Part shown: positions 18,718-52,933 of the stretch, piece after piece
How the letters are laid out: every line of letters begins with the position of its first letter
Position numbering within the stretch: the first letter of the stretch is position 1
Origin: an uncultured Alphaproteobacteria bacterium
GTDB lineage: Bacteria; Pseudomonadota; Alphaproteobacteria; Puniceispirillales; UBA1172
Length of the DNA: 64,000 nucleotides
Direction of reading: 5' to 3'
Assembly (NCBI GenBank): GCA_937952245.1
Contig: CALFYS010000117.1
Location: 25,544-89,543 of the forward strand
The notes under the pieces: model-generated
Databases searched by the model: none
Told to the model about the DNA's origin: nothing
Seen by the model: only the letters and a program-made list of their open reading frames with translations
Translations under genes and position numbers: made by a program

Positions 18718-18748
18718 CCCTATATCATGATGACCCTTTTCATAATGA

Positions 18749-19291: not shown

Positions 19292-19299
19292 CGGCGTGA

Positions 19300-20322
19300 T
19301 CAGGTTGAACCACGTTCATTAAGTTCAGCCAATTTTTGCTGGGCGGATGGCGAAAGGCCACCATTATTGGCTTGATCGTCACCGCCGGCATCATCACCGC
19401 CAAATGACCCCACTGGCATATCAAAATCATCGCCGCCAATGGGCGAGACATCGACTGTGACTTCATGTTTCGGTTTTGTATCTTCAGGAGTGTTTTCAGG
19501 GGCGGTGATGTCTTCAATGGGGATAAAATCATCCTCACCATCTTCAGCGAAATCATCTTCAAAACTGTCTTCAGCATCGTCTTCAATATGGTCAGAAGGG
19601 TCTGCGCCAAAACCGCCGAAATCAGTATGAATCCCTAAATCAGGATCATCATCCTCTGTGTCCTCAAAGAACAGCTCATCTTCGTTATTATTATCGTTGT
19701 CCGTCATGTCGTTTTCGGTCGCCACGGGCATGATGAAATCTTCATTAAAGTCAGATTGATCTGATGATGCTGTGCTCGTGCCAGTGCCAGCCCCAACATT
19801 TGTCATGGCGGCGGCGGTTGAGGCATCAAGGGTGAAGGATTGCACAGGCTGAGACGACACAATGGGCTTTGGCGCGTCATCAACAGGATCAGGGTGATCA
19901 AGGCTGGCGATTAAACTGCTGTCATCAACCACGGGCATAACACCAACCGCCAAATCATCATCAATGGATAAGGGCTTGCGCTTATCGGCAACAGGATAAA
20001 GCGGCAGGGGGCTGTCAGGGATTTTCGCCAAGTTTTTCATCACCGACTTTGGTGTGCCTTTTGCCTTTTTGGGGCGGCGGGCAGGTTTAGCCGCTTTAAC
20101 AGGCTTAGCCTTAGGTTCTTTGATTTTCTTCGGACGGCCTTTCTTTGGTTTGAGCCGAGAGATCAAAAGGATCATCACCAAAAAGATAAAGGCGCAAGTG
20201 ATCAAGAATAAAGGCTTGCCATATTGATTAACGGCAAGGCGAAGAACACCGTTGCTTTCCACAACGCTGGCCACTTGCGGCAAGGCATAGAACTGCTGAA
20301 TGAAAAGGTCGAGCTGTTCCAT
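19300..20322 (-). CDS. hypothetical membrane-anchored protein with a Lys/Pro-rich basic segment and a long Asp/Glu-rich low-complexity tail
   Basis: One TM segment (PLFLITCAFIFLVMILLISRL). It is followed by KPKKGRPKKIKEPKAKPVKAAKPARRPKKAKG and then a highly acidic region of more than 200 aa. The start overlaps the upstream stop (TAATG). Confidence 0.5.
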   Translation of the reverse strand: MEQLDLFIQQFYALPQVASVVESNGVLRLAVNQYGKPLFLITCAFIFLVMILLISRLKPKKGRPKKIKEPKAKPVKAAKPARRPKKAKGTPKSVMKNLAKIPDSPLPLYPVADKRKPLSIDDDLAVGVMPVVDDSSLIASLDHPDPVDDAPKPIVSSQPVQSFTLDASTAAAMTNVGAGTGTSTASSDQSDFNEDFIMPVATENDMTDNDNNNEDELFFEDTEDDDPDLGIHTDFGGFGADPSDHIEDDAEDSFEDDFAEDGEDDFIPIEDITAPENTPEDTKPKHEVTVDVSPIGGDDFDMPVGSFGGDDAGGDDQANNGGLSPSAQQKLAELNERGST

Positions 20323-26363: not shown

Positions 26364-27002
26364 ATGTTGAAGACATCTGAAGACACTGTGTTTTCAAAAA
26401 AAATGAATCGAGACTTGCCGACCAATGTCGCGGGTCTTGAGGGGGAATTAACGTCTTCAGGCCTGATCGGCAATGACATCAGAGCATTGCGCCAAGGCCG
26501 TGGGTTGACCTTATCGGCTTTGGCCAAAAAACTTGACCGTTCTGTGGGCTGGTTAAGCCAAGTGGAACGCGGCACGTCTGAACCTAATTTGGCGGATATT
26601 CGCCTGATCGCCGGAATTTTTAACCTGCCTGTCAGTTTCTTTTTTTCACATACCCCGCCGAGCGATGAATCAAGCTATATCGTGCGCGCTGAATCGCGCC
26701 GCAAGATGCGGGATGATGACACTTTTCTTACCGAAGAATTGCTCTCGCCGGATTTGGGCGGCGCTTTTGAATTGGTGCGGTCTGTTTTCGCCGCGGGGTC
26801 TTCAAGCAATGGCACAGTTAACCGCCCCACCGAAGAAGCCGGATATATCATTAAAGGCGAATTGCGCCTGACCATTGACGGTCAAGTTTTTGACCTAGGG
26901 CCAGGCGATAGTTTTTCATTCTCCCATGAAACCATGTCATGGGAAAACAAAGGCACTATTGACGCGGAAGTGATCTGGGTGATCGCCCCGCCAATTTATT
27001 AA
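26364..27002 (+). CDS. XRE family transcriptional regulator with C-terminal cupin domain
   Basis: HTH_3 segment (IRALRQGRGLTLSALAKKLDRSVGWLSQVERG) and a cupin segment (GYIIKGELRLTIDGQVFDLGPGDSFSF). The start could instead be ATG 26403. Confidence 0.8.
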   Translation: MLKTSEDTVFSKKMNRDLPTNVAGLEGELTSSGLIGNDIRALRQGRGLTLSALAKKLDRSVGWLSQVERGTSEPNLADIRLIAGIFNLPVSFFFSHTPPSDESSYIVRAESRRKMRDDDTFLTEELLSPDLGGAFELVRSVFAAGSSSNGTVNRPTEEAGYIIKGELRLTIDGQVFDLGPGDSFSFSHETMSWENKGTIDAEVIWVIAPPIY

Positions 27003-27028
27003 TCACGTATGGGATAAGTGAGGATATT

Positions 27029-29515
27029 ATGACTGATCAAGCACAAGATACAAATAAAGCCACCGGTAAATTGCCATCAACCGCAAGGGTTGTCGTCATC
27101 GGCGGGGGTTCTGTTGGGACATCTGTTCTTTACCATTTGGCCAAGATGGGCTGGACAGATTGTGTGCTGCTGGAAAAGAACGAATTGACATCAGGTTCAA
27201 CTTGGCACGCGGCGGGGAATTGCCCCAATTACGCCGCCAATTGGACCATCATGCAGATGCAGTCTTATTCAAACCGCCTTTACCGCACCTTGGGCGAAGA
27301 GGTTGACTACCCGATGAATTATCACGTCACCGGCGCGATCCGATTGGCTCATTCAAAAGAACGGATGGAAGAGTTCCGCCATGTTGAAGCCATGGGTCGC
27401 CAGATGGGCATTGAATTTCAAGAAATGTCACCTGCTGAAATGCAAGAGGTGTATCCGTTCCTTGAAACCCATGATCTTGCGGGTGGCCAGTGGGATCCGC
27501 TGGATGGTGATATTGACCCCGCGCAGTTGTCACAGGCTTTTGCAAAAGGCGCTCGTGATCTTGGCGCGCAAGTCATCCGCTTTTGTCCAGTGACAGGTGT
27601 TGAACGGGTCAATGATGAATGGCTGATCAAAACCGATAACGGCGATATTCGTTGTGAATATGTGGTCAACGCCGCGGGGTATCGTGCTGATGAGATTGGC
27701 AAGATGTTTGGCCGCGACGTGCCTTGTGTATCCATGGCGCACCAGTATTTGATCACCGAAAGCATTGATGAGCTGACCAACCGCAAAGAAAAACTGCCGT
27801 TGTTGCGTGATCCGGACAGCTCTTATTACCTGCGTCAGGAAAAAGATGGCCTGTTGTTGGGGCCTTATGAATACAATTGTAAAGCCCATTGGGTAACAGA
27901 AGATGACCCGCGTCCGGCGGATTTCTCCTTCCAATTGTGGAACGATGATCTGGAACGTCTGGAATGGTATATCGAAGATGCTATTAACCGTGTTCCTATT
28001 CTGGGGTCAGGCGGCATCACCCGGGTGGTGAACGGGCCTATTCCTTACGCCCCTGATGGCTTGCCATTGATCGGGCCTATGCCGGGCGTGCCAAACGCTT
28101 TTGAAGCTTGTGTCTTTACCTTTGGTATTGTTCAGGCGGGCGGCGCTGGTAAATTGATGGCGGAAATGATCACCGAAGGTGAAACCGAAAGCGACAGCTG
28201 GGCTGTTGACCCGCGCCGTTTCACCGATCACGTTGACCGTGATTATTCCATCGCCAAGGCGATTGAAACCTATAGCCATGAATACGCCATGCATTTCCCG
28301 CATATCCAATGGCCAGCGGGTCGCGGGGCTAAAACATCTCCGCTTTATGACACATTGAAGTCAAAAGGCGCGGCCTTTGGCTCATACGGCGGCTGGGAAC
28401 GTGTTGAATATTTCTTGGCGGATGGCGAAGAAGAAAAGATGGTGGACAGCTATAACCACCAGCCTTCATTTGATGCCGTCGGCGCAGAATGTCGCCATGT
28501 TGCTGAACACGCTGGTCTGCTCGACCTGACAGGCTTCAGCCGCTATGAGATTAAAGGCGAAGGCGCTCGGGCTTGGCTGGATAGTCTGGTGACAGGCCGC
28601 TTGCCAAAAGAAGGCCGCATCGGTTTGATCTATTTCGCCACCGAAAAGGGCAAGACGCTGACGGAAATGACCGCCACCTGCTTCGGCGATAATCATTTCT
28701 GGCTGATCACCGGCGCGGGCGCGCTTTGGCATGACCGTGATTGGCTGCTGCATCAGATGCCGCAGGATGGTTCTGTTGAATTCAAAGACATCACCCGTGA
28801 TATGGGGTCGTTGTTGCTGACAGGGCCGAAATCACCGGCAATCTTTGAAAAACTGACCGGCGGCAGTGCCGCGCAAGCCGACTTCCCGTGGTTGAGCCAT
28901 CAGAACGTGTCCATCGGCGGGATTAACGCTGTTGCTATTCGCGTGTCTTTCGCTGGTGAAGCGGGATGGGAATTCCATGCTGATATGGGTCAATTGCATG
29001 ATGTTTGGGATGCCATTATGGCCGCGGGTGAAGACCATAACCTTGGGCTGTTTGGGATGCTGGCGCTTGATTCCATGCGTCTTGAAAAAGGCTATCGTTC
29101 ATGGAAATCTGACCTGACTTCAGATTACACGATGCTGGAAAGCGGGCTGGGCCGTTGGGTCAACCTCAATAAAGAAAACTTTGTTGGTAAAGCCGCGCTT
29201 CAGGCGGAAATGCAACGCGGCGCATCAAAAGCCTTTGTCACCATGACGGTTGAAGACCCCACCGATGGTGAGCCTTTTGGCGATGCGGTTTATCTGTCGC
29301 CTATTCAGTCTGACGGCAAAGACGTTGGGCTGGTGGTTTCCGCAGGCTATGGCCACCGTGTCGGCAAATCCATTGCTTATGGCGTCATTGAGCAAACCGC
29401 GATTGATGCTGGTCTTTCTAACCTTTCCATCAGTGTTCTAGGGCGCGATCGTAAAGCCGCGATTGTCGAAGGTGACGCGCTTTATGATGCTGGCCACGAA
29501 AAAGTGAGGGCATAA
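27029..29515 (+). CDS. GcvT-fused FAD-dependent oxidoreductase (dimethylglycine/sarcosine dehydrogenase family), paralog 1
   Basis: VVVIGGGSVGTSVLYHL dinucleotide motif. TSGSTWHAAG, the His used for covalent FAD in this family. C-terminal aminomethyltransferase (folate-binding) domain. 828 aa. Confidence 0.85.
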   Translation: MTDQAQDTNKATGKLPSTARVVVIGGGSVGTSVLYHLAKMGWTDCVLLEKNELTSGSTWHAAGNCPNYAANWTIMQMQSYSNRLYRTLGEEVDYPMNYHVTGAIRLAHSKERMEEFRHVEAMGRQMGIEFQEMSPAEMQEVYPFLETHDLAGGQWDPLDGDIDPAQLSQAFAKGARDLGAQVIRFCPVTGVERVNDEWLIKTDNGDIRCEYVVNAAGYRADEIGKMFGRDVPCVSMAHQYLITESIDELTNRKEKLPLLRDPDSSYYLRQEKDGLLLGPYEYNCKAHWVTEDDPRPADFSFQLWNDDLERLEWYIEDAINRVPILGSGGITRVVNGPIPYAPDGLPLIGPMPGVPNAFEACVFTFGIVQAGGAGKLMAEMITEGETESDSWAVDPRRFTDHVDRDYSIAKAIETYSHEYAMHFPHIQWPAGRGAKTSPLYDTLKSKGAAFGSYGGWERVEYFLADGEEEKMVDSYNHQPSFDAVGAECRHVAEHAGLLDLTGFSRYEIKGEGARAWLDSLVTGRLPKEGRIGLIYFATEKGKTLTEMTATCFGDNHFWLITGAGALWHDRDWLLHQMPQDGSVEFKDITRDMGSLLLTGPKSPAIFEKLTGGSAAQADFPWLSHQNVSIGGINAVAIRVSFAGEAGWEFHADMGQLHDVWDAIMAAGEDHNLGLFGMLALDSMRLEKGYRSWKSDLTSDYTMLESGLGRWVNLNKENFVGKAALQAEMQRGASKAFVTMTVEDPTDGEPFGDAVYLSPIQSDGKDVGLVVSAGYGHRVGKSIAYGVIEQTAIDAGLSNLSISVLGRDRKAAIVEGDALYDAGHEKVRA

Positions 29516-29517
29516 TC

Positions 29518-31992
29518 ATGGCAACACTTCCACAACACGCTAAAGCCGTCATTATTGGCGGTGGGGTGGTCGGCTGTTCCGTCGCCTATCACCTGACAAA
29601 ACTGGGCTGGACCGATGTTGTCTTGCTGGAACGCAAACAATTGACTTGCGGGACAACATGGCACGCCGCGGGGCTGATCGCGCAATTGCGCGCCACCCAA
29701 AACATGACGCGCTTGGCGAAATATTCGCAAGAATTGTATTTCAATCTTGAAGATGAAACAGGCGTGGCCACGGGCATTAAGCGCAACGGTTCCATCACCG
29801 TGGCCTTGACCGACGAACGGATGGAAGAGCTTCGCCGTTCAGCAGCGATGGCGCGGGCATTCGGGGTGGAAATTGATGAAATCCCCACCGATGAAATCGC
29901 CCGTCTTTACCCCGGGTTGAATGTTGAAGACGCGGTTGGCGGTGTTTGGTTGCCAAAAGATGGTCAGGGCGATCCGGTAAACATTACCCAAGCTTTGGCG
30001 AAAGGCGCGAAAATGCGCGGCGCGAATATCATCCAAGGCGTAAAGGTCACCGGCGTTACTGTTGAAGATGGAAAAGCCGTTGGCGTTGAAACAGAAGACG
30101 GCAATATCCGTGCTGATTTCGTTGTTAATTGCGGCGGGATGTGGGCGCGTGAAGTGGGCGCCATGGCCGGTGTTGCCGTGCCGCTTCATGCTTGTGAACA
30201 TTTCTACATTGTCACCGAAGGCATTGAAGGGTTGCAAAGCAATTTGCCGGTGTTGCGGGTGCCGGATGAATGTGCCTATTACAAAGAAGATGCGGGCAAA
30301 ATTATGCTGGGGGCGTTTGAGCCAAACTCAAAGCCTTGGGGGATGGATGGTATCCCTGAAGATTTTGAATTTGATAGCCTGCCCGAAGATTTTGACCATT
30401 TTGAACCCATCCTTGAAAAAGCGGTTGAACGTCTGCCGGTTCTGGGCACAGCGGGGATTCAAACCTTCTTTAATGGTCCGGAAAGCTTTACCCCCGATGA
30501 CCGCTATATCCTTGGCGAAGCCCCTGAAGTGAAGAATTTCTTTGTGGCGGCTGGCTTTAATTCGGTGGGGATTCAATCCGCGGGTGGCGCGGGCATGGTG
30601 CTGGCCGAATGGATGGATAAAGGCAACGCCCCCATGGATTTATGGGATGTCGATATTCGCCGGATGCAACCTTTCCAAGTCAATAAAAAATACCTGCATG
30701 ATCGGGTGAGTGAAACCCTTGGTCTGCTTTACGCGGATCACTTCCCTTACCGCCAGTTTGAAACAGGGCGGGATGTTCGCCGTTCACCGCTGCATCACCG
30801 TTTAGAAGATGCCGGGGCGTGTTTCGGAGAAGTGAACGGCTGGGAACGTGCCAATTGGTTCTTGCCTGCCGCTGAACGTGCCGCGGGCAAAACCGCTGAA
30901 TATGAATATTCATGGAAACGTCAAAACTGGTTTGAGCATAACGCCGCTGAACATAAAGCCATTCGTGAAACGGTGGGGATGTTCGATATGTCCAGTTTCG
31001 GCAAGATCATGGTCATGGGCAAAGATGCCGAAGCCGTGCTTCAGTTGGTGGCGGGCAATGATGTTGCCGTTGATAATGGCAAGATCGTCTATACCCAATT
31101 CTTGAATAGCGATGGCGGGATCGAAGCGGATGTGACCATCACCAGATTGTCTGCAGACCGCTTTATTATCGTGACCCCTGCCGCCACCATCCGCCGTGAT
31201 ATTAACTGGATTGAACGTCATATTCCTGATGGCGCGCATTGTTCGGTCATGGATGTGACGGCGATGGAAAGCGTCATGGTGGTGATGGGGCCGCAATCCC
31301 GTGACTTCCTGCAACCGTTGATCCCGCAAAGCCTCGCGAATGAAGATTTCCCCTTTGGCACAATGCAAGAGGTTGAAATCGGTTACGCCACGGCGCGCGC
31401 CCATCGCGTGACTTATGTCGGTGAATTGGGCTGGGAGCTCTATGTATCGGCGGATATGGCGGTGCATGTTTATGATGAATTGATGAAGCGTGGCCAAGAC
31501 CATGCCATCACCCATTGTGGCTTGCATACGCTTGATTCCTGCCGCATCGAAAAAGCCTTCCGCCATTTCGGGCATGATATTTCCAACGAAGATCATGTGC
31601 TGGAAGCAGGCTTGGGCTTTGCCGCGAAAATTGGCAAGCAATCGGGCCGGTTCGGTGATTTCATTGGCCGTGAAGCGGTGATGCGCAAGAAAGAAGACGG
31701 GCTGAACGCGCGTTTGATGCAGTTCAAATTAAAAGACCCGATGCCGCTTCTTTATCACAATGAAGCCATTCTCCGTGATGGTGAGATTGTGGGGTATTTA
31801 ACATCAGGAAATTACGGTCATCACCTTGGTGGTGCCGTTGGCCTTGGTTATGTCCCTTGCCGTGATAAAGGCGAAGATGCCAAATCGCAATTGGCGTCTG
31901 AATATATGATTGATGTGGCTGGACAAAAGGTCATGGCAGAAGTTAGCCTGAAGCCAATGTATGATCCAACCGCGGAACGCGTTAAAGCCTAG
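29518..31992 (+). CDS. GcvT-fused FAD-dependent oxidoreductase (dimethylglycine/sarcosine dehydrogenase family), paralog 2
   Basis: VIIGGGVVGCSVAYHL and TCGTTWHAAG motifs plus a C-terminal GcvT domain. 824 aa. Starts 3 nt after the stop of paralog 1. Confidence 0.85.
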   Translation: MATLPQHAKAVIIGGGVVGCSVAYHLTKLGWTDVVLLERKQLTCGTTWHAAGLIAQLRATQNMTRLAKYSQELYFNLEDETGVATGIKRNGSITVALTDERMEELRRSAAMARAFGVEIDEIPTDEIARLYPGLNVEDAVGGVWLPKDGQGDPVNITQALAKGAKMRGANIIQGVKVTGVTVEDGKAVGVETEDGNIRADFVVNCGGMWAREVGAMAGVAVPLHACEHFYIVTEGIEGLQSNLPVLRVPDECAYYKEDAGKIMLGAFEPNSKPWGMDGIPEDFEFDSLPEDFDHFEPILEKAVERLPVLGTAGIQTFFNGPESFTPDDRYILGEAPEVKNFFVAAGFNSVGIQSAGGAGMVLAEWMDKGNAPMDLWDVDIRRMQPFQVNKKYLHDRVSETLGLLYADHFPYRQFETGRDVRRSPLHHRLEDAGACFGEVNGWERANWFLPAAERAAGKTAEYEYSWKRQNWFEHNAAEHKAIRETVGMFDMSSFGKIMVMGKDAEAVLQLVAGNDVAVDNGKIVYTQFLNSDGGIEADVTITRLSADRFIIVTPAATIRRDINWIERHIPDGAHCSVMDVTAMESVMVVMGPQSRDFLQPLIPQSLANEDFPFGTMQEVEIGYATARAHRVTYVGELGWELYVSADMAVHVYDELMKRGQDHAITHCGLHTLDSCRIEKAFRHFGHDISNEDHVLEAGLGFAAKIGKQSGRFGDFIGREAVMRKKEDGLNARLMQFKLKDPMPLLYHNEAILRDGEIVGYLTSGNYGHHLGGAVGLGYVPCRDKGEDAKSQLASEYMIDVAGQKVMAEVSLKPMYDPTAERVKA

Positions 31993-32011
31993 TTTTTCAG
32001 GAGTATTCGTG

Positions 32012-33565
32012 ATGATCAATAAATCCCCTGTACCAAAATCACGCCGTGCTGGTGGCCGTCAGGCCAGAAAATCACTGAGAGCCGCCCCATTAGCCGAAGA
32101 ATTACGCCCCGTGCGGGCAGGGCTTTCAGGCGGTTCCTACAAGCCGCTTGATGACGCGGCCATGACCGCGGTGATTGATGCGGTTTACCAAATCCTTGAA
32201 GAAATTGGCCTGAGCCAAGCGCCGGAATCCGGTGTTGAATATATGTGTTCCGTGGGCGCGATTGCTGGCGATGATGGACGGGTGCGTTTCCCCCGTCATG
32301 TGATTGATGAAACGCTGGAAAAAGCCGCGCGGAATATCACGCTTCATGGCCAGTCGCCTGAATTTGATCTCGAATTATCAGGGTCAAAAGTGCATTACGG
32401 CACGGCGGGGGCGGCTGTCCATCTGGTTGATGTGGCGGGCAATGCCTATAAAGAAAGTGAGCTGAAAGATATTTACGATGCCGCGCGGATCGTTGAAAAA
32501 ATGGATAATATCCACTTCTTCCAGCGTCCTATGGTGGCGCGTGATGTTGAAGATGCTCGTGATCTGGACATTAACACGGTTTATGCCTCTGTTATCGGAA
32601 CACGGAAGCACGTTGGCACCAGTTTCACCGAAGCTGAATATGTGCCTGAAGCCATCGAAATGCTGCATAAGATTGCCGGTGGTGAAGACGCGTGGCGGGC
32701 ACGGCCATTTGTTTCAAATTCAAATTGCTTTGTGGTGCCGCCGCTTCGGTTTGCGACGGAATCCTGTTTGGTGATGGAAGAAGTCATCAAAGGCGGGATG
32801 CCGGTGTTACTGTTATCAGCGGGGCAGGCGGGGGCAACCGCGCCCGCATCCATCGCTGGCGCGGTGGCGCAAGCGGTTGCTGAAGTTTTGGCCGGGCTTG
32901 TTTATGTCAACGCGATGGTGCCCGGGCATCCTGCGATTTGCGGGACATGGCCATTTGTTTCAGATTTGCGGACTGGCGCGATGTCTGGCGGGTCAGGTGA
33001 ACAAGGGCTGTTGACCGCCGCTTGCGCGCAAGTGCTGAACCATTTCAATCTGCCGTCTGGTGCCGCTTCTGGCATGGCGGATGCGAAAATGCCTGATGCG
33101 CAATCCGGCTATGAAAAAGGCTCAACCGCTGTTATGGCGGGGCTGGCTGGTCTCAACATGGCGTATGAAACCGCTGGTATGCACGCTTCGCTTCTGGGTT
33201 TCTGCCTTGAAAGCTTGATCATTGATAATGATATGCTGGGGCAATGTATGCGCTGTGTTCGCGGGGTTGAGGTGAATGAGCAAACTTTATCCGTTGACGT
33301 GATGAAAGATGTTTGCATGGGCGGCCCGGGGCATTATCTGGGGCATGATGCGACGATTAATGTCATGCAGACCGAATATGTCTATCCTGAACTGGCGGAT
33401 CGGTCATCACCAAAGGAATGGGAAGAGCTGGGCAAGCCTGTGTTGAACGTGGAAGCGGCCAAACGCAAAGACGCGATCTTGTCTCAATTCATCCCTGATC
33501 ATATCGGCAAAGATGTTGATGAAGTCATTCGCCAGTCCCATAAAATCTTGCTGGCGCGGGCGTAA
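32012..33565 (+). CDS. trimethylamine methyltransferase (MttB) family protein, non-pyrrolysine type, paralog 1
   Basis: About 517 aa. The N-terminus (RRAGGRQARKSLRAAPLAEELRPVRAGLSGGSYKPLDD) is typical of alphaproteobacterial MttB-family proteins. The frame is uninterrupted with no in-frame TAG. CAGGAG lies 8 nt before ATG 32012. Confidence 0.8.
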   Translation: MINKSPVPKSRRAGGRQARKSLRAAPLAEELRPVRAGLSGGSYKPLDDAAMTAVIDAVYQILEEIGLSQAPESGVEYMCSVGAIAGDDGRVRFPRHVIDETLEKAARNITLHGQSPEFDLELSGSKVHYGTAGAAVHLVDVAGNAYKESELKDIYDAARIVEKMDNIHFFQRPMVARDVEDARDLDINTVYASVIGTRKHVGTSFTEAEYVPEAIEMLHKIAGGEDAWRARPFVSNSNCFVVPPLRFATESCLVMEEVIKGGMPVLLLSAGQAGATAPASIAGAVAQAVAEVLAGLVYVNAMVPGHPAICGTWPFVSDLRTGAMSGGSGEQGLLTAACAQVLNHFNLPSGAASGMADAKMPDAQSGYEKGSTAVMAGLAGLNMAYETAGMHASLLGFCLESLIIDNDMLGQCMRCVRGVEVNEQTLSVDVMKDVCMGGPGHYLGHDATINVMQTEYVYPELADRSSPKEWEELGKPVLNVEAAKRKDAILSQFIPDHIGKDVDEVIRQSHKILLARA

Positions 33566-33588
33566 GCTTGATTGCAGATGAAACAAAA

Positions 33589-33612
33589 GGGCGGCACGTG
33601 CCGCCCTTTTTT
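33589..33612. terminator. rho-independent terminator (bidirectional) between the MttB-family gene and ybaA-like gene
   Basis: GGGCGGCACGTGCCGCCC forms a perfect GC-rich hairpin. It is followed by TTTTTT and preceded by an A-rich run. Confidence 0.8.
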
Positions 33613-33639: not shown

Positions 33640-33987
33640 CTACTCATCCAGAAAAACGTCAAACCCACCCCAAATCATGCGCTTTCCATCAAAGGGCATA
33701 TGCTCATTTGTGATGCGCGGGTCGGTCATGATTTTCTGAACCCCAGCCATGCGGGCATCACGAGAAGGCCAGACAAGCCATGATAAAACCACGACTTCAT
33801 CCGCCTCTGCTTTGACCGCCATTGGAAAAGATGTCATTTCACCATCGGGGATGTCATCCCCCCATGTATCCACAACTCTGGTAACGCCGTGGTCTTTAAA
33901 CACTTCGACCATTTTTTTGGCGTGCGCCATATAGGCGTCTTTTTGATCGGCTTTAACGGCCGCCACAAACCCATCGATATAAGTCAT
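33640..33987 (-). CDS. ybaA: DUF1428 family protein (YbaA-like)
   Basis: From memory, similar along its length to E. coli YbaA. Matching segments are M.Y.DGFV.AV, FPMAVKAE..E.VV.SW..P and MPFDGKRMI.GGF. 115 aa. Confidence 0.85.
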   Translation of the reverse strand: MTYIDGFVAAVKADQKDAYMAHAKKMVEVFKDHGVTRVVDTWGDDIPDGEMTSFPMAVKAEADEVVVLSWLVWPSRDARMAGVQKIMTDPRITNEHMPFDGKRMIWGGFDVFLDE

Positions 33988-34023
33988 TGCTGACCTCCTC
34001 TGGTTGTTTGTGGCAAGTGTACC

Positions 34024-34935
34024 TTAATGGCGCTGTCCGTAATAGAGGGTGACGGTATGTTTCGCTTCGGCAAAGAACAACCAGCGGGAGACCATGACCC
34101 CAGCGATATGGATCAACGCCGCCAGCACCAAGGCCACAGGCGAAGACGCCGCCGCCAATAACGCCAAGCCAGGCAAGACAATCGCCAGACCAAGGCTGAT
34201 TTTACGAAGGGTATCGGCGTGTTTGCGGGCAACGACAAATCCCATTTCATGCTGCAACCAGTTTTCTTCTGAATGAGGCGGCATCAACATACGGACAGGG
34301 CCTAACGCGCCAAGGCCGGTGGCGCTTTCAGGGGTGGAACCACTGCCTTCTGCCCCCGCTTGCTTGGACCATAACACCGCAACAACCGCCGCTGAAAGAA
34401 GCGCCAATAACGCGGGCTGGGTCAAAACAGAAGCATCTCCATTGGCCATTGCATCCATGGTGACAGCGGCGATCAACCCGCCAGCCAAAGCATAGCCAAC
34501 AAACATGAATGGTGTCAGCGGGTGGAACCAGCGGGCAACCGTTTTTAATGACGCGTAGATCATGGCGGTGCACCAGATGGTTACCAGCGACAGGATCGCC
34601 ACCGCAACGCCTAACACAAAATTAGGCGCGCCGTTCATATAGCCATCCACGGCAAAACCAAAGAGCAAAATGGTGGTCAAGGCCGCCAATACGCCTTCAC
34701 GGGACAGCCAAGATGACCGCCATTGGGTCATCGCCCGCCATGCCCGTTCAGGGTGGCCAAGGTGCATGGTCGAAGAAACCACGCCAGCACCGATCAATGC
34801 CAAGGCAACGCCATTATACACCAGCCACCAAAAGGCGGTTGGCGCGGTGATCAACCCAAGGCCGATGATGGCGGCAAGGCCAAATCCAAGGCCGGAAAGG
34901 GTGGTGAAAACAATCAGGGAAAAGGCAGGACGCAT
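34024..34935 (-). CDS. soeC: membrane anchor subunit of a molybdoenzyme complex (DmsC/NrfD-like), candidate sulfite dehydrogenase SoeC
   Basis: About 8 TM helices, 303 aa. It is the last gene of a three-gene molybdoenzyme, FeS and anchor set adjacent to pta and the taurine genes. Confidence 0.6.
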   Translation of the reverse strand: MRPAFSLIVFTTLSGLGFGLAAIIGLGLITAPTAFWWLVYNGVALALIGAGVVSSTMHLGHPERAWRAMTQWRSSWLSREGVLAALTTILLFGFAVDGYMNGAPNFVLGVAVAILSLVTIWCTAMIYASLKTVARWFHPLTPFMFVGYALAGGLIAAVTMDAMANGDASVLTQPALLALLSAAVVAVLWSKQAGAEGSGSTPESATGLGALGPVRMLMPPHSEENWLQHEMGFVVARKHADTLRKISLGLAIVLPGLALLAAASSPVALVLAALIHIAGVMVSRWLFFAEAKHTVTLYYGQRH

Positions 34936-34944
34936 GACGATTTC

Positions 34945-35700
34945 CTATTGCAAGCGATCAAGAGTTTTATCAAGCCAAGACCAGAAGCCAGCGCCTTCAT
35001 TGGTCTGGGTATTGGCCAAAGCCACCAGATCAACAGGACCATCTTCTTCAATTTCAGCCTGACGTGGGCGAGGCGGCAGGTATTTGTTGACGGGCTTGGT
35101 GTCTTGTTCTGGCATCAGATCAAAACCGCCACGTTCCGCCACCAATTTGCTGACATCAGAATTGGGATCACCCAAATCACCGAAATGGCGAGCGCTGGTG
35201 GGGCAGGTGCGCACACAAGCGGGGATTTGGTCTTCTTCTTCCAAAGTTTCGTTGTAAATCCGGTCAACACAAAGGGTGCATTTCTTCATGACCCCTTCGG
35301 CAGGGTCCATCTCACGGGCGCCATAAGGGCAAGACCATGCGCAAAGACCACAGCCAATGCACCAATCTTCATTGACCAGCACAATACCATCTTCCGCCCG
35401 TTTATAGGACGCGCCAGTAGGACAAACAGGCACACAAGGCGCGTCTTCACAATGCAGGCATGATTTTGGGAAATGAACAACCCGCGCGTCTTTGCCCGTG
35501 CCCGCTTCAAACGTATGAACACGGTTCAGCCATGACCCCACAGGGTTATCGCCATAGGCGTTGACATCGGAAAGCGGCGCGCCGTAACCAGCGGTGTTCC
35601 ATTCCTTACAATTGACAACACAAGCTTGGCAACCGACACAAATATCAAGGTCAATGACAAGGCCAAGTTTAACATCTGATGGTGGTGGCATATCGGTCAT
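34945..35700 (-). CDS. soeB: 4Fe-4S ferredoxin-type subunit (DmsB-like), candidate SoeB
   Basis: Four Cys cluster motifs: CVGCQACVVNC, CLHCEDAPCVPVCP, CIGCGLCAWSCP and CTLCVDR. The start overlaps the catalytic subunit's stop (ATGA). Confidence 0.7.
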   Translation of the reverse strand: MTDMPPPSDVKLGLVIDLDICVGCQACVVNCKEWNTAGYGAPLSDVNAYGDNPVGSWLNRVHTFEAGTGKDARVVHFPKSCLHCEDAPCVPVCPTGASYKRAEDGIVLVNEDWCIGCGLCAWSCPYGAREMDPAEGVMKKCTLCVDRIYNETLEEEDQIPACVRTCPTSARHFGDLGDPNSDVSKLVAERGGFDLMPEQDTKPVNKYLPPRPRQAEIEEDGPVDLVALANTQTNEGAGFWSWLDKTLDRLQ

Positions 35701-38573
35701 CGTGTGCCTCCTTTTTTCTCATCTTCGATAATTCGCAAACCATACCGCAGGGTCTGATCAGGCTTGCTGAGCCCTGCTGGTGACTGTTGAGGGGCAAAGT
35801 CAGGGAAGACCACTTCAGGTTCATCCGCGCTGGCCTTTTCAATATTGACCTTCAAATCATACCACGCGGCTTGGCCGGTGATCGGATCAGAATTCGCCCA
35901 ACGCAGCCCATCTCCTTTTGGTGGGAGCAATTCATGGATCAAATGGTTGAGCAAAAATCCTTTGCGGGATTCCGGCGCGTCTTCATCCAATTGCCATGCC
36001 CCACGGCGTTTGCCGATGGCGTTCCATGTCCAAACCGTGTTGGGGTTAACGCCTTCCATAATGGCAACAGGGACGCGGATACGGCCATGGTGTGAGGTCA
36101 CCCAAGCCCAATCGCCATCACTTAAGCCATGCTTTTCCGCCAACATCCCTGAAATAAACAGAGGGTTATGACCATGAATCTGGCGCAGCCATGGGTTCTG
36201 TGATCCCCATGAATGATACATCGCCATTGGCCGCTGGGTCAGGGCATAGATCGGGAATTCATCATCATCGGTCTGTTTGTCTTCAAACGGCTGATACCAT
36301 GATGGCAGCGGGGTGAAACAGGTTTTGATCTGCTCCCGCATATGTTCAGGCGGTTGAACATCACCATGGCCTTCGGCGGCCAATTTAAACTTTTGCAAGA
36401 CTTCGCTGTAAATCTGGAAAGTGTAAGGCTCAGGCTTATCAAAGAAGCCCATTTCAACGGCGAAATTCTGATAAGCCATATTGGCGTGTTTGAAATAAAG
36501 CGCGTCTTCGGGCAGATGCTTCATCCAGAAACCGCCGTTTTCAATGTAACGGTCGATCTGATTGGCGTTTGGCTCACCTCGGCCTTCATCATCGCCATTG
36601 CCGCGGAAACCTGAAAGCGGGCCAATCCCGGGCTTGCGCTGGTGATTGGTGATGTAATCCGCGTAATCTTTATATTTTGCGGTGCCATCTTCATTGGTCA
36701 TCCCCGGCAAGCCAAGGCGCGCCCCCAAATCAAGCAAGACCGATTGGAAACCGCGAACATCACGGTCAGGTTCAACCACCGGCCAGCGAATGGCATCGGC
36801 AACCGCTTCGGCTTCACAGATCGGGCGATCCAAAAGCGAAATACAGTCATGGCGTTCCAGATAAGTCGTGTCGGGCAGAATCAAATCAGCGAAAGCCACC
36901 ATCTCAGATGAATAGGCATCGGAATAAATGATTTTCGGGATTTTATATTCGCCCGTCTCAGGGTCTTTGTCGGTGAGCATTTCCATGACACCGCGGGTAT
37001 TCATGGATGAATTCCACGCCATATTCGCCATATACATGAACAAGACATCCACCGGATACGGATCACCAGCATGGGCGTTGGAGATCACCATATGCATCAA
37101 GCCATGGGCGGACATCGGCGCGTCCCATGAATAGGCTTTATCAATCCGTGTTGGATTGCCATCGCCATCCACCAGCATATCTTCAGGCCCCATCAAATAT
37201 CCCAATGGCGCGCCAGGCAGAGGTGTGTTGGGCTTAATCTGGTCAGGCTTACCAGCAGGGCGGGGGTGAATAGAGGCCGGCTTCGGGTAAGGCGGCTTAA
37301 AGCGGAAACCGCCCGGGCATTCAACACTGCCCAACATCAATTGCAGGACGTGCAACGCACGGCAGGTCTGAAAGCCGTTTGAATGGGCTGAAATCCCGCG
37401 CATGGCGTGCATGGAAACAGGCCGACCAATCATTTTGTCGTGCTTGTCGCCTTTCCAATCGGTCCAAGGCTGATTGATGGTGATGGTTTTTTCAAACGCG
37501 GCTTCGGCCAATTCCGCCGCCAATTTACGGACACGGGCGGCTGAAACGCCAGTTTTGGCTTCGGTCGCCTCAGGGCTTAATTCAGGCGTCATCCATTCTT
37601 CTGCCATCAAGGTGAAGGCCGGAACAGCAACACCGCCGGACTTAACTTTGACTTCGCCTTTAAGCTCAGGGGTGATGCCGCCTTTATTGGCAGGGACGGT
37701 CTTGCCGGTCTTGCGATCAATCACAAGAGCGTTGCCATCATCATCACGAAGGAACAGGCCATCATCGGCTTGCCCCGGGTTGCGAATAACCAGCCAAGGG
37801 GCGTTGGTGTAGCGGATCAGATAATCGACATCAATCTTGCCTGATTCCATCAACACTTGGATCAAGGATAGGATCAACAGCCCATCACTGCCCGGGGTGA
37901 TGCCAATCCAGTCATCGGCCACCGCGGAATACCCTGTTTGCACAGGATTGACGGAAATCGTCCGAACGCCGCGGTCTTTTAATTTGCCAAGGCCAATTTT
38001 GATGGGGTTGCTGTCATGGTCTTCGGCAACGCCAAAGAGCAGGAACAATTCAGTTTTTTCCCAATCCGGTGAGCCAAACTCCCAAAACGCGCCGCCGATG
38101 GTGTAGATGCCGCCCGCCGCCATATTGACCGAACAAAACCCGCCATGGGCAGCGAAATTGGGCGTGCCAAATTGTTGCGCCCACCAACCGGTAAGAGCTT
38201 GGGATTGGTCACGGCCTGTAAAGAACGCCAGTTTTTTCGGGTCATTGGCACGAACAGGACCCAGCCAATCGGTTGCGGTGCTGAGGGCTTCTTCCCATGA
38301 GATTTCAACAAATTCACCTGAACCACGAGGGCCAACCCGCTTTAATGGCGCCCGCAAACGTGCTGGCGAAAGATGCTGCATAATCCCCGCAGACCCTTTG
38401 GCGCAAAGAACCCCTTGGTTAACCGGGTGATCACGGTTGCCCTCGATATAGCGGATGTCATCACCTTTCATATGGACATTGATGCCACAACGACAGGCGC
38501 ACATATAACACGTGGTCTTGGCAACGCGATCGGCGCTTGCCGGTGATGTATTGATCTTCGGCTGTTTAGACAT
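35697..38573 (-). CDS. soeA: molybdopterin (bis-MGD) oxidoreductase catalytic subunit without Tat signal, candidate cytoplasmic sulfite dehydrogenase SoeA
   Basis: N-terminal FeS motif CYMCACRCGINVH..C. About 958 aa from ATG 38573 (GGGGA upstream), with no twin-arginine motif. The longer ORF to 38744 would overlap pta. Confidence 0.65.
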   Translation of the reverse strand: MSKQPKINTSPASADRVAKTTCYMCACRCGINVHMKGDDIRYIEGNRDHPVNQGVLCAKGSAGIMQHLSPARLRAPLKRVGPRGSGEFVEISWEEALSTATDWLGPVRANDPKKLAFFTGRDQSQALTGWWAQQFGTPNFAAHGGFCSVNMAAGGIYTIGGAFWEFGSPDWEKTELFLLFGVAEDHDSNPIKIGLGKLKDRGVRTISVNPVQTGYSAVADDWIGITPGSDGLLILSLIQVLMESGKIDVDYLIRYTNAPWLVIRNPGQADDGLFLRDDDGNALVIDRKTGKTVPANKGGITPELKGEVKVKSGGVAVPAFTLMAEEWMTPELSPEATEAKTGVSAARVRKLAAELAEAAFEKTITINQPWTDWKGDKHDKMIGRPVSMHAMRGISAHSNGFQTCRALHVLQLMLGSVECPGGFRFKPPYPKPASIHPRPAGKPDQIKPNTPLPGAPLGYLMGPEDMLVDGDGNPTRIDKAYSWDAPMSAHGLMHMVISNAHAGDPYPVDVLFMYMANMAWNSSMNTRGVMEMLTDKDPETGEYKIPKIIYSDAYSSEMVAFADLILPDTTYLERHDCISLLDRPICEAEAVADAIRWPVVEPDRDVRGFQSVLLDLGARLGLPGMTNEDGTAKYKDYADYITNHQRKPGIGPLSGFRGNGDDEGRGEPNANQIDRYIENGGFWMKHLPEDALYFKHANMAYQNFAVEMGFFDKPEPYTFQIYSEVLQKFKLAAEGHGDVQPPEHMREQIKTCFTPLPSWYQPFEDKQTDDDEFPIYALTQRPMAMYHSWGSQNPWLRQIHGHNPLFISGMLAEKHGLSDGDWAWVTSHHGRIRVPVAIMEGVNPNTVWTWNAIGKRRGAWQLDEDAPESRKGFLLNHLIHELLPPKGDGLRWANSDPITGQAAWYDLKVNIEKASADEPEVVFPDFAPQQSPAGLSKPDQTLRYGLRIIEDEKKGGTR

Positions 38574-38598
38574 GATTAATCCCCGAGGACAGGTTGAA

Positions 38599-39528
38599 TT
38601 AACATAGCGCGGCGAGCGCGATTGAAGCCAGTCGTGATTCAGCACTATCAGCACGGCTGGTAAGAATAATTGGCACTTTACCGCCCACCACCACACCGGC
38701 GGCACAGGCGGCGTTATGCCAGACCATTGATTTAAAGAGCACATTGCCGGAGGTGATCTCAGGCATCACAAGGGCATCGGCATAACCGGCAACAGGGTTG
38801 TCTTTCATCCCTTTGATGCTGACGGCTTCTGGCGACATGGCCAGATCAAAGGACAACGGCCCGCTGACCAAAGCGCCGGTGATATTATCCTGCGCCCAAT
38901 CGTTTAAATCTTTCGCTTCCATGGATGATGGCACCGAGGCGATCGGTGTTTCGGTGGCGGAAATAATTGCGATTTTTGGGGTTTCGATCCCCAAAGCCTT
39001 AGCGGTGCTGGCAAGGCTGATCAACATTTGCTGGCGGGTTTTGACATCAGGGGTGACATTAACCGCACCATCGCTGATCAAAATTGGTGAGCCGCCATCA
39101 GGGTGGAACATGGCAAAGATATGCACCATGCGATCAGAACCTCTGATCCCCGCTTCACGGCTGACAATCCCGCCCATGAACACATCAGAATGAAGATGAC
39201 CTTTCATCAACGCGTCCGCCCCACCATTGCGCGTCAGGGCGGTGGCATGGTCAATCGCGCCTTTTTCACCCGAGCTGTCATGAATGGCGATGCCGGTTAA
39301 ATCCCAATCAATGGCGGCGGCTTCTTTTTTGATTAAATCCGCTTCACCAATCAGGATTGGGGTGGCGATGCCTTCTTCATAGGCTTGTTTGGCGGTTTGA
39401 ATAGGCAATGGGGCAGACGCGCGAACAACCGCAAGGCGCATGGGTTCAGGCCTTGCCGCGCGGGCACGATCAAGCAAATCGGTCGGGCAGACCGGTGAAT
39501 TTTTGGATAAAAATGCTGAACCAGACAT
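38599..39528 (-). CDS. pta: phosphate acetyltransferase (short form, phosphate acetyl/butyryl transferase family)
   Basis: 309 aa. The ...PILIGE...IHDS and GADALMKGHLHSD motifs are typical of the PTA_PTB family. Located between tauR and the soe-like genes. Confidence 0.7.
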   Translation of the reverse strand: MSGSAFLSKNSPVCPTDLLDRARAARPEPMRLAVVRASAPLPIQTAKQAYEEGIATPILIGEADLIKKEAAAIDWDLTGIAIHDSSGEKGAIDHATALTRNGGADALMKGHLHSDVFMGGIVSREAGIRGSDRMVHIFAMFHPDGGSPILISDGAVNVTPDVKTRQQMLISLASTAKALGIETPKIAIISATETPIASVPSSMEAKDLNDWAQDNITGALVSGPLSFDLAMSPEAVSIKGMKDNPVAGYADALVMPEITSGNVLFKSMVWHNAACAAGVVVGGKVPIILTSRADSAESRLASIALAALC

Positions 39529-39638
39529 GGTACTTCCACCCCAATGAGAATCTTATATTTGTGATGTCACACTCTAGCATTAATCAATATTAACGCCATA
39601 AGATCAACACCATAATGCCCCTATGTGGCAATTGTGCC

Positions 39639-39670
39639 ATAGAACCAGATCAAGACAAGGTTAGGTCCAG
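39639..39670 (-). promoter_or_regulatory. direct repeat pair CTGGACCTAA-N12-CTGGTTCTAT (22-bp register), candidate TauR (MocR) operator of the pta-soe promoter
   Basis: Read on the minus strand, 111-142 nt upstream of the pta start. The same motif and the same 22-bp spacing occur upstream of the aminotransferase gene at 41247-41278. Confidence 0.5.
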
Positions 39671-39684
39671 ATGAAAACGCGGGA

Positions 39685-41181
39685 TCAGGGTGATGGTTTT
39701 AACGCCGTGACGCAGCCCACCAGTTTTTCAAACCCATCATTGATTTTATCTTCATGGATCGAAGAATAGGCCATGCGGAAATAATTTTGCGGCGGGGTTT
39801 TGGCGTTAAAGAAATGATGGCCGGGTTCAACCAAGATGCTTTGTTCCGCGGCTTTTTCAGCAAGAATACGGGCGTCGAGCCATTCCGGACCTTTGATCCA
39901 GAAACTCGTGCCACCAAAATGCGCGCCTGTTTCTTCCAGAAGGCCTTCTTTTTCAAGATTGTCATGCAGAATTTTGCGGCGGTTGCTGAAATGCCTTCTG
40001 AGGCGTTTGATCTGGGCATCATAATGGCCAAGCGCCATGAAATAAGCGGCGGTGCGCTGGGTTTGACCAGGGGGATGCCGCAACATCAAATGCCGCAACG
40101 AGCGGGCTTCTTCGATCAATTGTTCCGAGGCGACCAAATACCCCAAGCGCAACCCCGGGAATAAGGATTTGGAAAAACTGCCGACATAAATCACATGGCC
40201 GCTATCATCCATGGATTTGAGGGCAGGCGAGGGGGCTTCGATGAAATTCATCTCAAATTCATAGTCATCTTCCACCACCAAGACATCATGTTCTTGGGCT
40301 AATGCCAGCAGGTTTTTCCGCCGTTCACGGCTGAGGGTTGCGGTGGTGGGGCATTGGTGGCTGGGGGTGACAATCACCATATCTGATGATGCGATCACTT
40401 GGTCATCAATAATGATGCCGTCATCATCAACGGGCAGGGTTTGGATATGATTGGTATGACGTTTCAGCAATTCCCTAAGGTCAGGATAGAACGGGTCTTC
40501 GATCACGACTTTTTTGTCTTGATTGACCAGCAATTGTATCAGCAAGAATAGGGCGTTTTGCGCCCCCATGGTGACAAGAATCTGTGATGGTTTTACTTGG
40601 ATGCCACGGCGGGGCAAACTGTGGGAGCAAATGTAATCAACCAAAAGCGGGTCATCATTATAGCCAAAATCCCCGGCGGTGATGCCAAAATCCCTGATGC
40701 CAAGAGCTTGGCGGGCGCAATCACGCCATTCGGAATGGGAAAACAAAGTGGAATCCGCTTGCCCATAATTAAAGGGAAAATCATATTCGCGCCAGTTCAG
40801 CGGCTTGCTGATGATATTGAGCGTCGATGGTTTTTGGACAAATTTATCAATCCATTTCACCTGATCATCGCTTGGCGGGGATACGCTTTCTGGAATCTGG
40901 CCAACAGGGGCTTCGGGGCTGACGATAAAGCCGGAACGGTCTTTTGGTTCGATATAGCCGCTGTCGGTTAACGCCTGATACGCCAGAATAACAGTGTTGC
41001 GTGAGACATCCAGTTGTTCACAAAGAACACGGGTGGATGGCAAGGCATCCCCGGGCATTAAACTCCGGTTCAGGATTGCCCTGACAAAAAATTCTCTGAT
41101 TTGGGTCTGTTTTGATGCCGATTGCGTGGTGTCAATCTGGAATAAAACAGGACTATAACCTTTGTTCATATTGGGGTTCAT
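39685..41181 (-). CDS. tauR: MocR-type GntR family transcriptional regulator with aminotransferase-like domain, candidate TauR
   Basis: N-terminal GntR wHTH (LPSTRVLCEQLDVSRNTVILAYQALTDSGYI) and a fold type I aminotransferase domain of about 380 aa (SFSKSLFPGLRLGY, carrying the PLP lysine). Divergent from the aminotransferase and tauABC genes. Confidence 0.7.
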   Translation of the reverse strand: MNPNMNKGYSPVLFQIDTTQSASKQTQIREFFVRAILNRSLMPGDALPSTRVLCEQLDVSRNTVILAYQALTDSGYIEPKDRSGFIVSPEAPVGQIPESVSPPSDDQVKWIDKFVQKPSTLNIISKPLNWREYDFPFNYGQADSTLFSHSEWRDCARQALGIRDFGITAGDFGYNDDPLLVDYICSHSLPRRGIQVKPSQILVTMGAQNALFLLIQLLVNQDKKVVIEDPFYPDLRELLKRHTNHIQTLPVDDDGIIIDDQVIASSDMVIVTPSHQCPTTATLSRERRKNLLALAQEHDVLVVEDDYEFEMNFIEAPSPALKSMDDSGHVIYVGSFSKSLFPGLRLGYLVASEQLIEEARSLRHLMLRHPPGQTQRTAAYFMALGHYDAQIKRLRRHFSNRRKILHDNLEKEGLLEETGAHFGGTSFWIKGPEWLDARILAEKAAEQSILVEPGHHFFNAKTPPQNYFRMAYSSIHEDKINDGFEKLVGCVTALKPSP

Positions 41182-41246
41182 ACCAGAGTCCCTATTGGAG
41201 TTCCTATTGGCCTATCATGGAGCCAGCATAATCGGAAAAAGATCAT

Positions 41247-41278
41247 CTGGCACTAAAAAATGAAATGACTGGACCTAT
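41247..41278 (+). promoter_or_regulatory. direct repeat pair CTGGCACTAA-N12-CTGGACCTAT (22-bp register), candidate TauR operator of the aminotransferase/tauABC promoter
   Basis: Read directly from the sequence, 122-153 nt upstream of ATG 41400. Matches the pair at 39639-39670 in motif, orientation relative to the gene, and spacing. Confidence 0.5.
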
Positions 41279-41399
41279 TTTTGTTCACATTTAATAGATA
41301 CGGTTTTTAATAGGGTTATATGCCCGACTGAATTTATGAACATCACAATTCAACTTGGTTCCATTTTAGGAGCCCCAAGCGAAACGGGGAGGTTTGATC

Positions 41400-52929: not shown

Positions 52930-52933
52930 GACA

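Follow-up and report, generated by a model that had tools for sequence, protein, structure and literature searches.

The 64,000-nucleotide stretch of contig CALFYS010000117.1 from an uncultured Puniceispirillales bacterium (SAR116 clade, Alphaproteobacteria), hereafter the window, raises the question of where a MttB-superfamily methyltransferase delivers its methyl group when no corrinoid protein is encoded beside it. The gene, designated MttB1, is the last of a four-gene cassette that also comprises an XRE-cupin regulator and two dehydrogenases of the dimethylglycine dehydrogenase (DMGDH)/sarcosine dehydrogenase (SARDH) family, DHA and DHB. The cassette is real and conserved, and, by analogy with related bacteria, the missing B12 carrier is most likely a shared corrinoid protein, MtgC, encoded elsewhere in the genome. 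Having no corrinoid partner alongside is normal for a system that was described in 2025. Taken as a whole, the cassette probably serves the stepwise N-demethylation of a trimethylammonium osmolyte, with the first methyl group leaving via unlinked MtgC, MtgD and RamA.

The four open reading frames (ORFs; ORF calls and Pfam, Table 1) lie on the same strand (26364-33565, +) and are separated by gaps of 26, 2 and 19 nt when MttB1 is taken to start at 32012. Although the longest ORF for MttB1 begins at 31961, inside the preceding gene, the ATG at 32012 is the likely start, with a GGAG ribosome-binding site at 32000, 8 nt before it, and the frame contains no internal stops. The XRE-cupin protein, which has a weak match to PuuR in NCBIfam, is regarded here as the local regulator of the cassette. 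The terminator hairpin downstream has a perfect 11-bp GC-rich stem, 7 of whose pairs are GC, with an A-run on one side and a T-run on the other (minimum free energy -22.9 kcal/mol, z = -4.9), and can stop both the cassette and the convergent DUF1428 gene. No riboswitch or other RNA was found 5' of the operon, nor was a promoter found by a scan for the sigma-70 consensus, which is uninformative for this lineage. ORF, Pfam and hairpin data thus bear out what a first-pass annotation had read from this DNA, namely the operon layout, the gene identities, a strong terminator and an uninterrupted MttB gene without pyrrolysine.

A scan of a genome collection (one genome per species, MttB as query) retrieved 74 related loci. 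Among the related loci compared, 35 had the same order regulator-DHA-DHB-MttB and 10 more had DHA-DHB-MttB, while most others were cut by contig ends. Within SAR116 loci, MttB identity ranged from 96% down to 64%. The isolate LSUCC0744 carries the cassette intact (75% identity) in completely different surroundings, Sinorhizobium meliloti has a LysR-DHA-DHB-MttB version (57%, 64% and 61% identity for DHA, DHB and MttB, respectively) with different flanks, and Hoeflea poritis also carries the cassette, again with different flanks. Because gene order is kept across these 35 and 10 loci and in such unlike surroundings, the cassette is a functional unit and not a chance adjacency.

Pfam or NCBIfam scans of all ORFs measuring 150 aa or more, together with a shorter one of 115 aa (the DUF1428 ORF, 33640-33987), identified no B12-binding, pterin-binding, RamA, BHMT or Rieske domains in the window. 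Searches by tblastn with MtgC, DUF1638, MetF2, MtgD, RamA and Bmt likewise gave zero matches at E <= 1e-3 in the window and 83 related loci (1.38 Mb), and no corrinoid, MtgD or RamA gene was located within 10 kb of the MttB1-type gene in any of these 83 orthogroup loci. A regular expression for DxHxxG...SxL...GG, run over the same sequences, had produced two matches that were judged to be chance; tblastn then confirmed the absence. An exact-protein look-up extended the sequence beyond the window by approximately 6 kb on the right, where TauE, DUF1285 and NUDIX genes but no MtgC, MtgD or RamA/DUF1638 were present, and added nothing new on the left. Hence, the earlier observation that the 64 kb encode no corrinoid protein, second methyltransferase, activase or BHMT holds, and extends to the whole orthogroup. 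A search with the MtgC homolog of Paracoccus aminovorans returned no SAR116 complete-genome contigs among the best 120 matches, all of which were Rhizobiales or Paracoccus clusters at >=82%, a result that is uninformative rather than negative.

The first-pass annotation had also regarded the methyl acceptor as unknown. That statement is out of date, as an unlinked MtgC/MtgD/RamA set has been published for aerobic Alphaproteobacteria, including SAR116 (PMC12478193; bioRxiv 10.64898/2025.12.19.695462). In Ruegeria pomeroyi, MtgC (SPO2160) and MtgD (SPO1863) are essential not only to methionine synthesis but also to the demethylation of glycine betaine (Mausz et al. 2025, PMC12478193); mutants in mtgC and in mtgD no longer synthesise methionine or grow on glycine betaine (PMC12478193). 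MtgC is the corrinoid protein and MtgD the pterin methyltransferase of this system, and their genes lie far from those of the PF06253 proteins MtgB1 (SPO2108) and MtgB2 (SPO2134) (PMC12478193). RamA (SPO2041) and a DUF1638 protein (SPO2162) are co-induced, and the MtgB2, MtgC, MtgD, RamA and DUF1638 proteins are all increased on glycine betaine, choline and carnitine (PMC12478193). MtgC probably serves as many as seven PF06253 paralogs in a genome (PMC12478193), and genetic data show MtgC, MtgD and RamA/DUF1638 to be common to MttB-family demethylases and a split methionine synthase in aerobic marine Alphaproteobacteria (PMC12478193; bioRxiv 10.64898/2025.12.19.695462). Mutants of Phaeobacter inhibens confirm the MtgBCD model, and Puniceispirillales are named among the cobalamin producers carrying MtgBCD (Hammer et al. 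2025, bioRxiv 10.64898/2025.12.19.695462).

For the SAR116 isolates IMCC1322 and HIMB100, Dataset S2 gives matches to MtgE (52-53%), MtgC (79-82%), MtgB1 (57-60%), MtgB2 (59-62%) and MtgD (54-66%), and neither MetH nor MetE (PMC12478193). Within its accessible part, all isolate genomes with an MtgB2 match also have MtgC, and those entries with an MtgB2 match that lack MtgC are all incomplete assemblies from single cells or metagenomes. Citreicella sp. SE45 and Oceanicola sp. S124 are entered there with an MtgB1-like match and no MtgC, and both have MetH and GbcAB (Dataset S2, PMC12478193). If this pattern is real, some PF06253 proteins may use another corrinoid domain or none. The cassette resembles this aerobic marine MtgBCD(E) system of R. 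pomeroyi and P. inhibens (Mausz et al. 2025; Hammer et al. 2025) in that its PF06253 gene stands apart from MtgC, MtgD and RamA/DUF1638; the system also has several PF06253 paralogs per genome and is reported in SAR116. It differs in that MtgB2 of roseobacters is a lone gene, whereas the counterparts in the window, S. meliloti and Hoeflea share an operon with a regulator and two enzymes of DMGDH type.

A same-genome check was possible in S. meliloti, which was probed with the MtgC of P. aminovorans, from a plasmid with a colocalised set of MttB, MtgC - DUF1638 - MetF - MtgD - RamA. At 2.22-2.23 Mb, S. meliloti encodes bmt, followed further on by ferredoxin - MttB (mtgB1), MtgC - DUF1638 and MetF - MtgD - RamA. 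Its LysR-DHA-DHB-MttB cassette lies at 2.557 Mb of the same replicon, 331 kb from the MtgC locus, with no corrinoid gene near it. Therefore, at least one cassette-bearing genome has the complete corrinoid set in trans. The first-pass annotation had held that a cognate, co-induced set elsewhere in the genome would speak against a missing partner; for orthologs of MttB1 such a set was found, by layout in S. meliloti and by proteomics in R. pomeroyi. Two peculiarities of the S. meliloti record (CP090106.1) are reported here in their own right. It is titled 'S. meliloti Ak57 plasmid pSymB' but, at 3.7 Mb and with metH, bmt and fhuF, is evidently the chromosome. Moreover, DHB seems disrupted in this strain, with no coding sequence at 17472-20001 of the extracted locus (L009), stops in all frames and a tblastn match to the first half only.

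By this scheme, MttB1 would move the first methyl group to Co(I) of a housekeeping MtgC encoded elsewhere, which would also serve the split methionine synthase. MtgD would then hand the methyl group to tetrahydrofolate, and RamA/DUF1638 would re-reduce oxidised cobalamin, all from genes located elsewhere. As predicted from family membership, DHA and DHB would take off the other two methyl groups oxidatively, as 5,10-methylene-tetrahydrofolate on their GcvT domains. The product would be a primary amine; in the case of glycine betaine, the route would run from dimethylglycine via sarcosine to glycine.

The assignment of MttB1 within its superfamily was examined by profile, sequence and fold comparisons. 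The protein matches PF06253 (MTTB; E = 6.7e-104) over profile positions 1-489 of 500, and Candidatus Puniceispirillales supplies its best protein matches (96-75% identity), while identical copies are present on several metagenome contigs. Against sequences of solved structures, it scored 180 bits to MtgB, 176 bits to MttB and 132 bits to 4YYC. An AlphaFold2 model (pLDDT 64, residues 351-469 below 50) was used at fold level only and not for the pocket. Foldseek with this low-confidence model placed 7XCM/7XCL, 2QNE/9YCE and 4YYC at the top (TM approximately 0.6, probability 1.0); MttB, MtgB and 4YYC were its sole strong structural matches.

Pairwise comparison splits the MttB-family proteins into two deep clades. 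Clade I comprises the MtgC-adjacent proteins of S. meliloti and P. aminovorans and a Shimia gene adjoining guaA (mutual identity 62-80%); the Shimia member, which was the one searched, scored 390 bits to MtgB of Desulfitobacterium hafniense and 720 bits to PDB 4YYC (S. meliloti). In R. pomeroyi, it is SPO2108 (MtgB1) that adjoins guaA (SPO2109). Clade II comprises MttB1, a second MttB paralog of the window (MttB2), the S. meliloti cassette gene, a second Shimia protein (Shimia_A) and plasmid copies from R. pomeroyi and Leisingera; its members share 40-68% identity with each other and only 23-30% with clade I. MttB1 is 60% identical to Shimia_A, whose roseobacter orthologs are themselves approximately 80% identical to Shimia_A, and the ortholog in a Ruegeria sp. 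(80%) has an outer-membrane beta-barrel gene just before it, like SPO2133 before SPO2134. Because of this identity and neighbourhood, MttB1 appears to be the SAR116 counterpart of MtgB2 (SPO2134) and not of MtgB1, an orthology that is indirect, resting on Shimia_A, the Ruegeria neighbourhood and the Dataset S2 figures for SAR116 MtgB2 matches (59-63%) rather than on the R. pomeroyi sequence itself. MttB1 is thus a new SAR116 member of the named MtgB2 clade.

MttB1 is not a pyrrolysine-dependent MttB, as it has neither a UAG codon nor a score above the cutoff of TIGR02369, the family of pyrrolysine-dependent trimethylamine methyltransferases (331.5 bits versus the 525-bit equivalog cutoff). Met355 aligns with pyrrolysine 334 of MttB from Methanosarcina barkeri, and no in-frame UAG is present. 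The motif around this position (LPSGAASGMADAK in MttB1, LPSYVAGS(Pyl)SDAK in the pyrrolysine-containing MttB) is closer to MttB than to MtgB. The Rfam model PYLIS_3 matches above its gathering score inside both mttB-like genes of the window (33074-33173, +, 53 bits; 56708-56807, -, 40 bits), beginning exactly at the Met355 ATG in MttB1 and at about the equivalent codon in MttB2. Because UAG is absent, these matches look like coding-sequence homology and not a working element. The M. barkeri MttB/MttC system (PDB 7XCL, 7XCN), which provided the top Foldseek match, is equally as similar to MttB1 (E = 1e-50) as is MtgB/MtgC/MtgA of D. hafniense (PDB 2QNE, 9YCE; E = 1e-51, Foldseek rank 3-4), but differs in its UAG/pyrrolysine codon and in the MttC that is not adjacent to MttB1. 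MtgB shares with MttB1 the superfamily, the lack of pyrrolysine and, as far as the low-confidence model goes, the TIM-barrel fold. It differs in sequence (approximately 24% identity), and its partners have no adjacent counterparts in the cassette, whose host is aerobic.

The two dehydrogenases have the DAO-FAO_M-GCV_T-GCV_T_C architecture of mammalian dimethylglycine and sarcosine dehydrogenases and Arthrobacter dimethylglycine oxidase (DMGO), and align with these end to end. DHA matches human and rat dimethylglycine dehydrogenase over its full length (541 bits), while DHB, which is 35% identical to DHA, scored 458 bits to DMGDH and 393 bits to the Arthrobacter oxidase. Architecture and end-to-end similarity to solved members therefore place both, by sequence, in the DMGDH/SARDH/DMGO family. 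DHA belongs to the same subtype as a third such gene in the window (DHC) and R. pomeroyi DH2, and DHB to the other subtype. We considered whether similarity marks DHA as a true dimethylglycine dehydrogenase, and rejected this, as paralogs from other clusters scored 417-501 bits to mammalian DMGDH; across the five bacterial DMGDH-type paralogs tested (417-541 bits), similarity does not fix dimethylglycine or sarcosine as the substrate. The recurrent partners of clade II MttB genes are DMGDH-type genes, never corrinoid genes. Two DMGDH-type genes accompany the MttB gene in the window cassette, S. meliloti, Hoeflea and the R. pomeroyi plasmid, and one accompanies window MttB2 and the Leisingera and Roseovarius plasmid copies. 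Such counts would be expected if the methyltransferase takes the first methyl group and each flavoenzyme one more.

Glycine betaine is the leading and a plausible candidate for the substrate of the cassette. Betaine, choline and carnitine all raise the level of the R. pomeroyi ortholog, and the two DMGDH-type enzymes include one of each subtype. Moreover, a typical gene set for conversion of L-carnitine/gamma-butyrobetaine to glycine betaine is located 8 kb upstream in the window (12215-18717), and the end product, glycine, needs no further dedicated gene. Several points weigh against this substrate, or against the scheme as a whole. In MtgB of D. hafniense, mutagenesis and a betaine-bound structure showed that Y97, R312, H348 and F356 bind glycine betaine, and every characterised member retains R312 (Picking et al. 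2026, PMC13080624). MttB1 has G, G350, E386 and L394 at these positions and so lacks the Arg conserved across all characterised members. It is also only 23-30% identical to the MtgB1-type proteins adjoining mtgC, and SAR116 genomes are expected to encode a distinct MtgB1-type enzyme at another site. Betaine does not support growth of a P. inhibens mtgB1 gbcAB double mutant (bioRxiv 10.64898/2025.12.19.695462), and Phaeobacter genomes carry an MtgB2 homolog nonetheless, according to the accessible part of Dataset S2 (PMC12478193). MtgB1 alone has genetic support as a betaine methyltransferase (from P. inhibens), MtgB2 being known only from proteomic induction. MtgC, MtgD and RamA of the source organism are predicted from relatives, and the putative corrinoid dependence of MtgB2-type enzymes rests on superfamily membership. 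The case for the earlier proposal that the MttB homolog performs the first demethylation of glycine betaine is weaker than was claimed, in view of the MtgB2-type affiliation, the missing betaine-binding residues and the MtgB1 expected elsewhere.

The residue replacements are a property of the clade. In a MAFFT alignment, the Y97, R312, H348 and F356 columns hold G, G/S, E/Q and L, respectively, in every clade II protein, and G350, E386 and L394 are invariant within the MtgB2 orthogroup, whereas the clade I proteins (Shimia, S. meliloti, P. aminovorans) retain Y, R and H. With both the betaine-binding residues and close identity missing, MttB1 does not class as an MtgB or MtgB1 by sequence. Because the pocket resembles that of pyrrolysine-containing MttB, with Met for pyrrolysine, Glu for the carboxylate-binding His and no Arg312, a tentative reading, held at well under even chances, is that the MtgB2-type clade is a functionally distinct MttB branch that may demethylate a substrate other than glycine betaine and, at the far end, might bypass MtgC.

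One form of this, which we consider rather unlikely, keeps the corrinoid-dependent chemistry and changes the substrate, to N-methylated taurines, to a quaternary amine that is non-acidic or to a tertiary amine (e.g., dimethylglycine). In the first case, taurine betaine would be converted to taurine, feeding the adjacent Tpa, Pta and sulfite-dehydrogenase genes. All four MtgB betaine-binding residues, including the carboxylate-binding Arg, are replaced in motifs that resemble those of pyrrolysine-containing MttB, and in genomes with clade II, a distinct MtgB1-type enzyme with Y, R and H intact is also present. Ocean particles have yielded a putative detection of taurine betaine, and what looks like a taurine/sulfoacetaldehyde-type island (33640-47000) lies downstream of the cassette, with SoeABC-like, Pta, MocR, Tpa and sulfonate-type ABC transporter genes adjoining it in the window and approximately 15-20 SAR116 loci, and a TauE sulfite exporter just past the right window end. 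However, the same SAR116 loci also keep the upstream pyruvate kinase and PPIase genes, and because these housekeeping genes are equally conserved, the linkage appears to be largely inherited gene order. No xsc was found in the window or any SAR116 locus (the TPP enzyme at 5010-6671 is not Xsc), and S. meliloti, LSUCC0744 and many other loci have no taurine genes nearby. An N-methylated taurine as substrate was downgraded accordingly, and the induction of the R. pomeroyi ortholog by betaine, choline and carnitine also argues against it. The sole independent hint of a link to sulfonate metabolism is the arrangement in Hoeflea poritis (L082, 6779-17732), where XRE-cupin, DHA and MttB genes are followed on the opposite strand by xsc and MocR, and then by DHB divergent from MocR, such that the cassette encloses a bona fide xsc (TIGR03457, 972 bits). 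The R. pomeroyi megaplasmid cluster, which adds a class-III aminotransferase and an Xsc-like TPP enzyme, may also be counted in favour of a different substrate.

A direct transfer of the methyl group to tetrahydrofolate (e.g., on the GcvT domains of the partner enzymes) or to free cobalamin, with no dedicated corrinoid protein, which would be the literal sense of the first-pass annotation's 'no corrinoid partner', would suit the lack of corrinoid, MtgD or RamA genes around all 83 loci, the constant pairing of clade II with folate-binding dehydrogenases and the few genomes such as Citreicella SE45 and Oceanicola S124 in the accessible part of Dataset S2, but it is very improbable, given that every characterised MttB-superfamily member methylates a corrinoid and MttB1 is equidistant from MttB and MtgB in sequence and in predicted fold, that those clade-carrying genomes that could be checked have MtgC, MtgD and RamA in trans, that MtgB2 is co-induced with the corrinoid set in R. 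pomeroyi, and that one corrinoid protein for many MttB paralogs is already known in Eubacterium. In Eubacterium limosum, the substrate-specific paralogs MtpB, MtcB, MtyB and MthB feed that one protein, a precedent for the partner in trans that we favour for MttB1, from which they differ in keeping the Arg312 equivalent, in being anaerobic and in lacking a coupling to DMGDH-type dehydrogenases.

The window holds a second MttB/dehydrogenase module (50686-63451), overlooked by the first-pass annotation, in which MttB2 is accompanied by DHC (Table 1). Its closest relatives are a Leisingera plasmid pair (63% for MttB, 55% for the dehydrogenase) adjoining a betaine-type ABC transporter. The single dehydrogenase of this module may mean a substrate with two removable methyl groups. 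Other clade II modules were observed on plasmids. On the R. pomeroyi megaplasmid (L084, 9019-19315), LysR and MttB genes are followed, in this order, by a class-III aminotransferase, two DMGDH-type genes and the Xsc-like TPP enzyme (394 bits, below cutoff). A Roseovarius indicus plasmid (L095, 8956-13956) carries, in order, LysR, MttB and one DMGDH-type gene with integrase genes on the flanks, which suggests that this module is mobile.

Table 1. Coordinates of the cassette, its terminator and the other features of the window discussed in the text
Feature	Position	Strand	Basis
XRE-family HTH + cupin transcriptional regulator, PuuR-like architecture (cassette gene 1)	26364-27002	+	Pfam HTH_3/HTH_31 + Cupin_2
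DHA, DMGDH/SARDH-family FAD dehydrogenase fused to a folate-binding GcvT domain, 828 aa	27029-29515	+	Pfam DAO, FAO_M, GCV_T, GCV_T_C
DHB, second, divergent DMGDH/SARDH-family dehydrogenase, 824 aa	29518-31992	+	Pfam DAO, FAO_M, GCV_T, GCV_T_C
MttB1, MttB-superfamily methyltransferase without pyrrolysine, MtgB2-type clade, 517 aa	32012-33565	+	PF06253
ATG codon (Met355) at the position of the M. barkeri mttB UAG/pyrrolysine codon	33074-33076	+	phmmer alignment to 7XCL, MAFFT columns, sequence
Bidirectional intrinsic terminator, common to the cassette (+) and the DUF1428 gene (-)	33585-33610	.	hairpin + A-run/T-run
Carnitine/gamma-butyrobetaine set: BKACE cleavage enzyme, 3-hydroxyacyl-CoA-type dehydrogenase-thioesterase fusion, acyl-CoA dehydrogenase, ADP-forming CoA ligase, enoyl-CoA hydratase	12215-18717		Pfam level only
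SoeCBA-like membrane/FeS/molybdopterin oxidoreductase	34024-38744	-	
Pta	38599-39528	-	
MocR-type regulator	39685-41181	-	
Omega-aminotransferase, AptA type (Tpa)	41394-42716		
NMT1/SsuA-type (sulfonate-type) ABC transporter	42846-46751		
Opp/Dpp-type ABC transporter, upstream of the MttB2 module; more ABC genes downstream	50686-56233		
MttB2, MttB paralog, 45% identity to MttB1, Met likewise at the pyrrolysine position	56325-57878	-	
MlrC/M81 peptidase-like gene	57979-59499	-	
DHC, third, divergent DMGDH-type gene	59586-62009		

SAR116 ranks among the most abundant clades of surface-ocean heterotrophs, and algae and bacteria use methylated osmolytes as a major currency. The cassette would organise a complete N-demethylation, in which one cobalamin-dependent step that borrows the corrinoid protein of methionine synthase is followed by two folate-coupled flavoenzyme steps, and such a scheme would link osmolyte use to vitamin B12 supply. 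The findings also call for caution where ocean omics studies take PF06253 or 'mtgB' matches as markers for the catabolism of glycine betaine, as these matches span at least two deep clades and the betaine-binding residues occur in one only. The other, the MtgB2-type clade, is widespread in SAR116, roseobacters and rhizobia.

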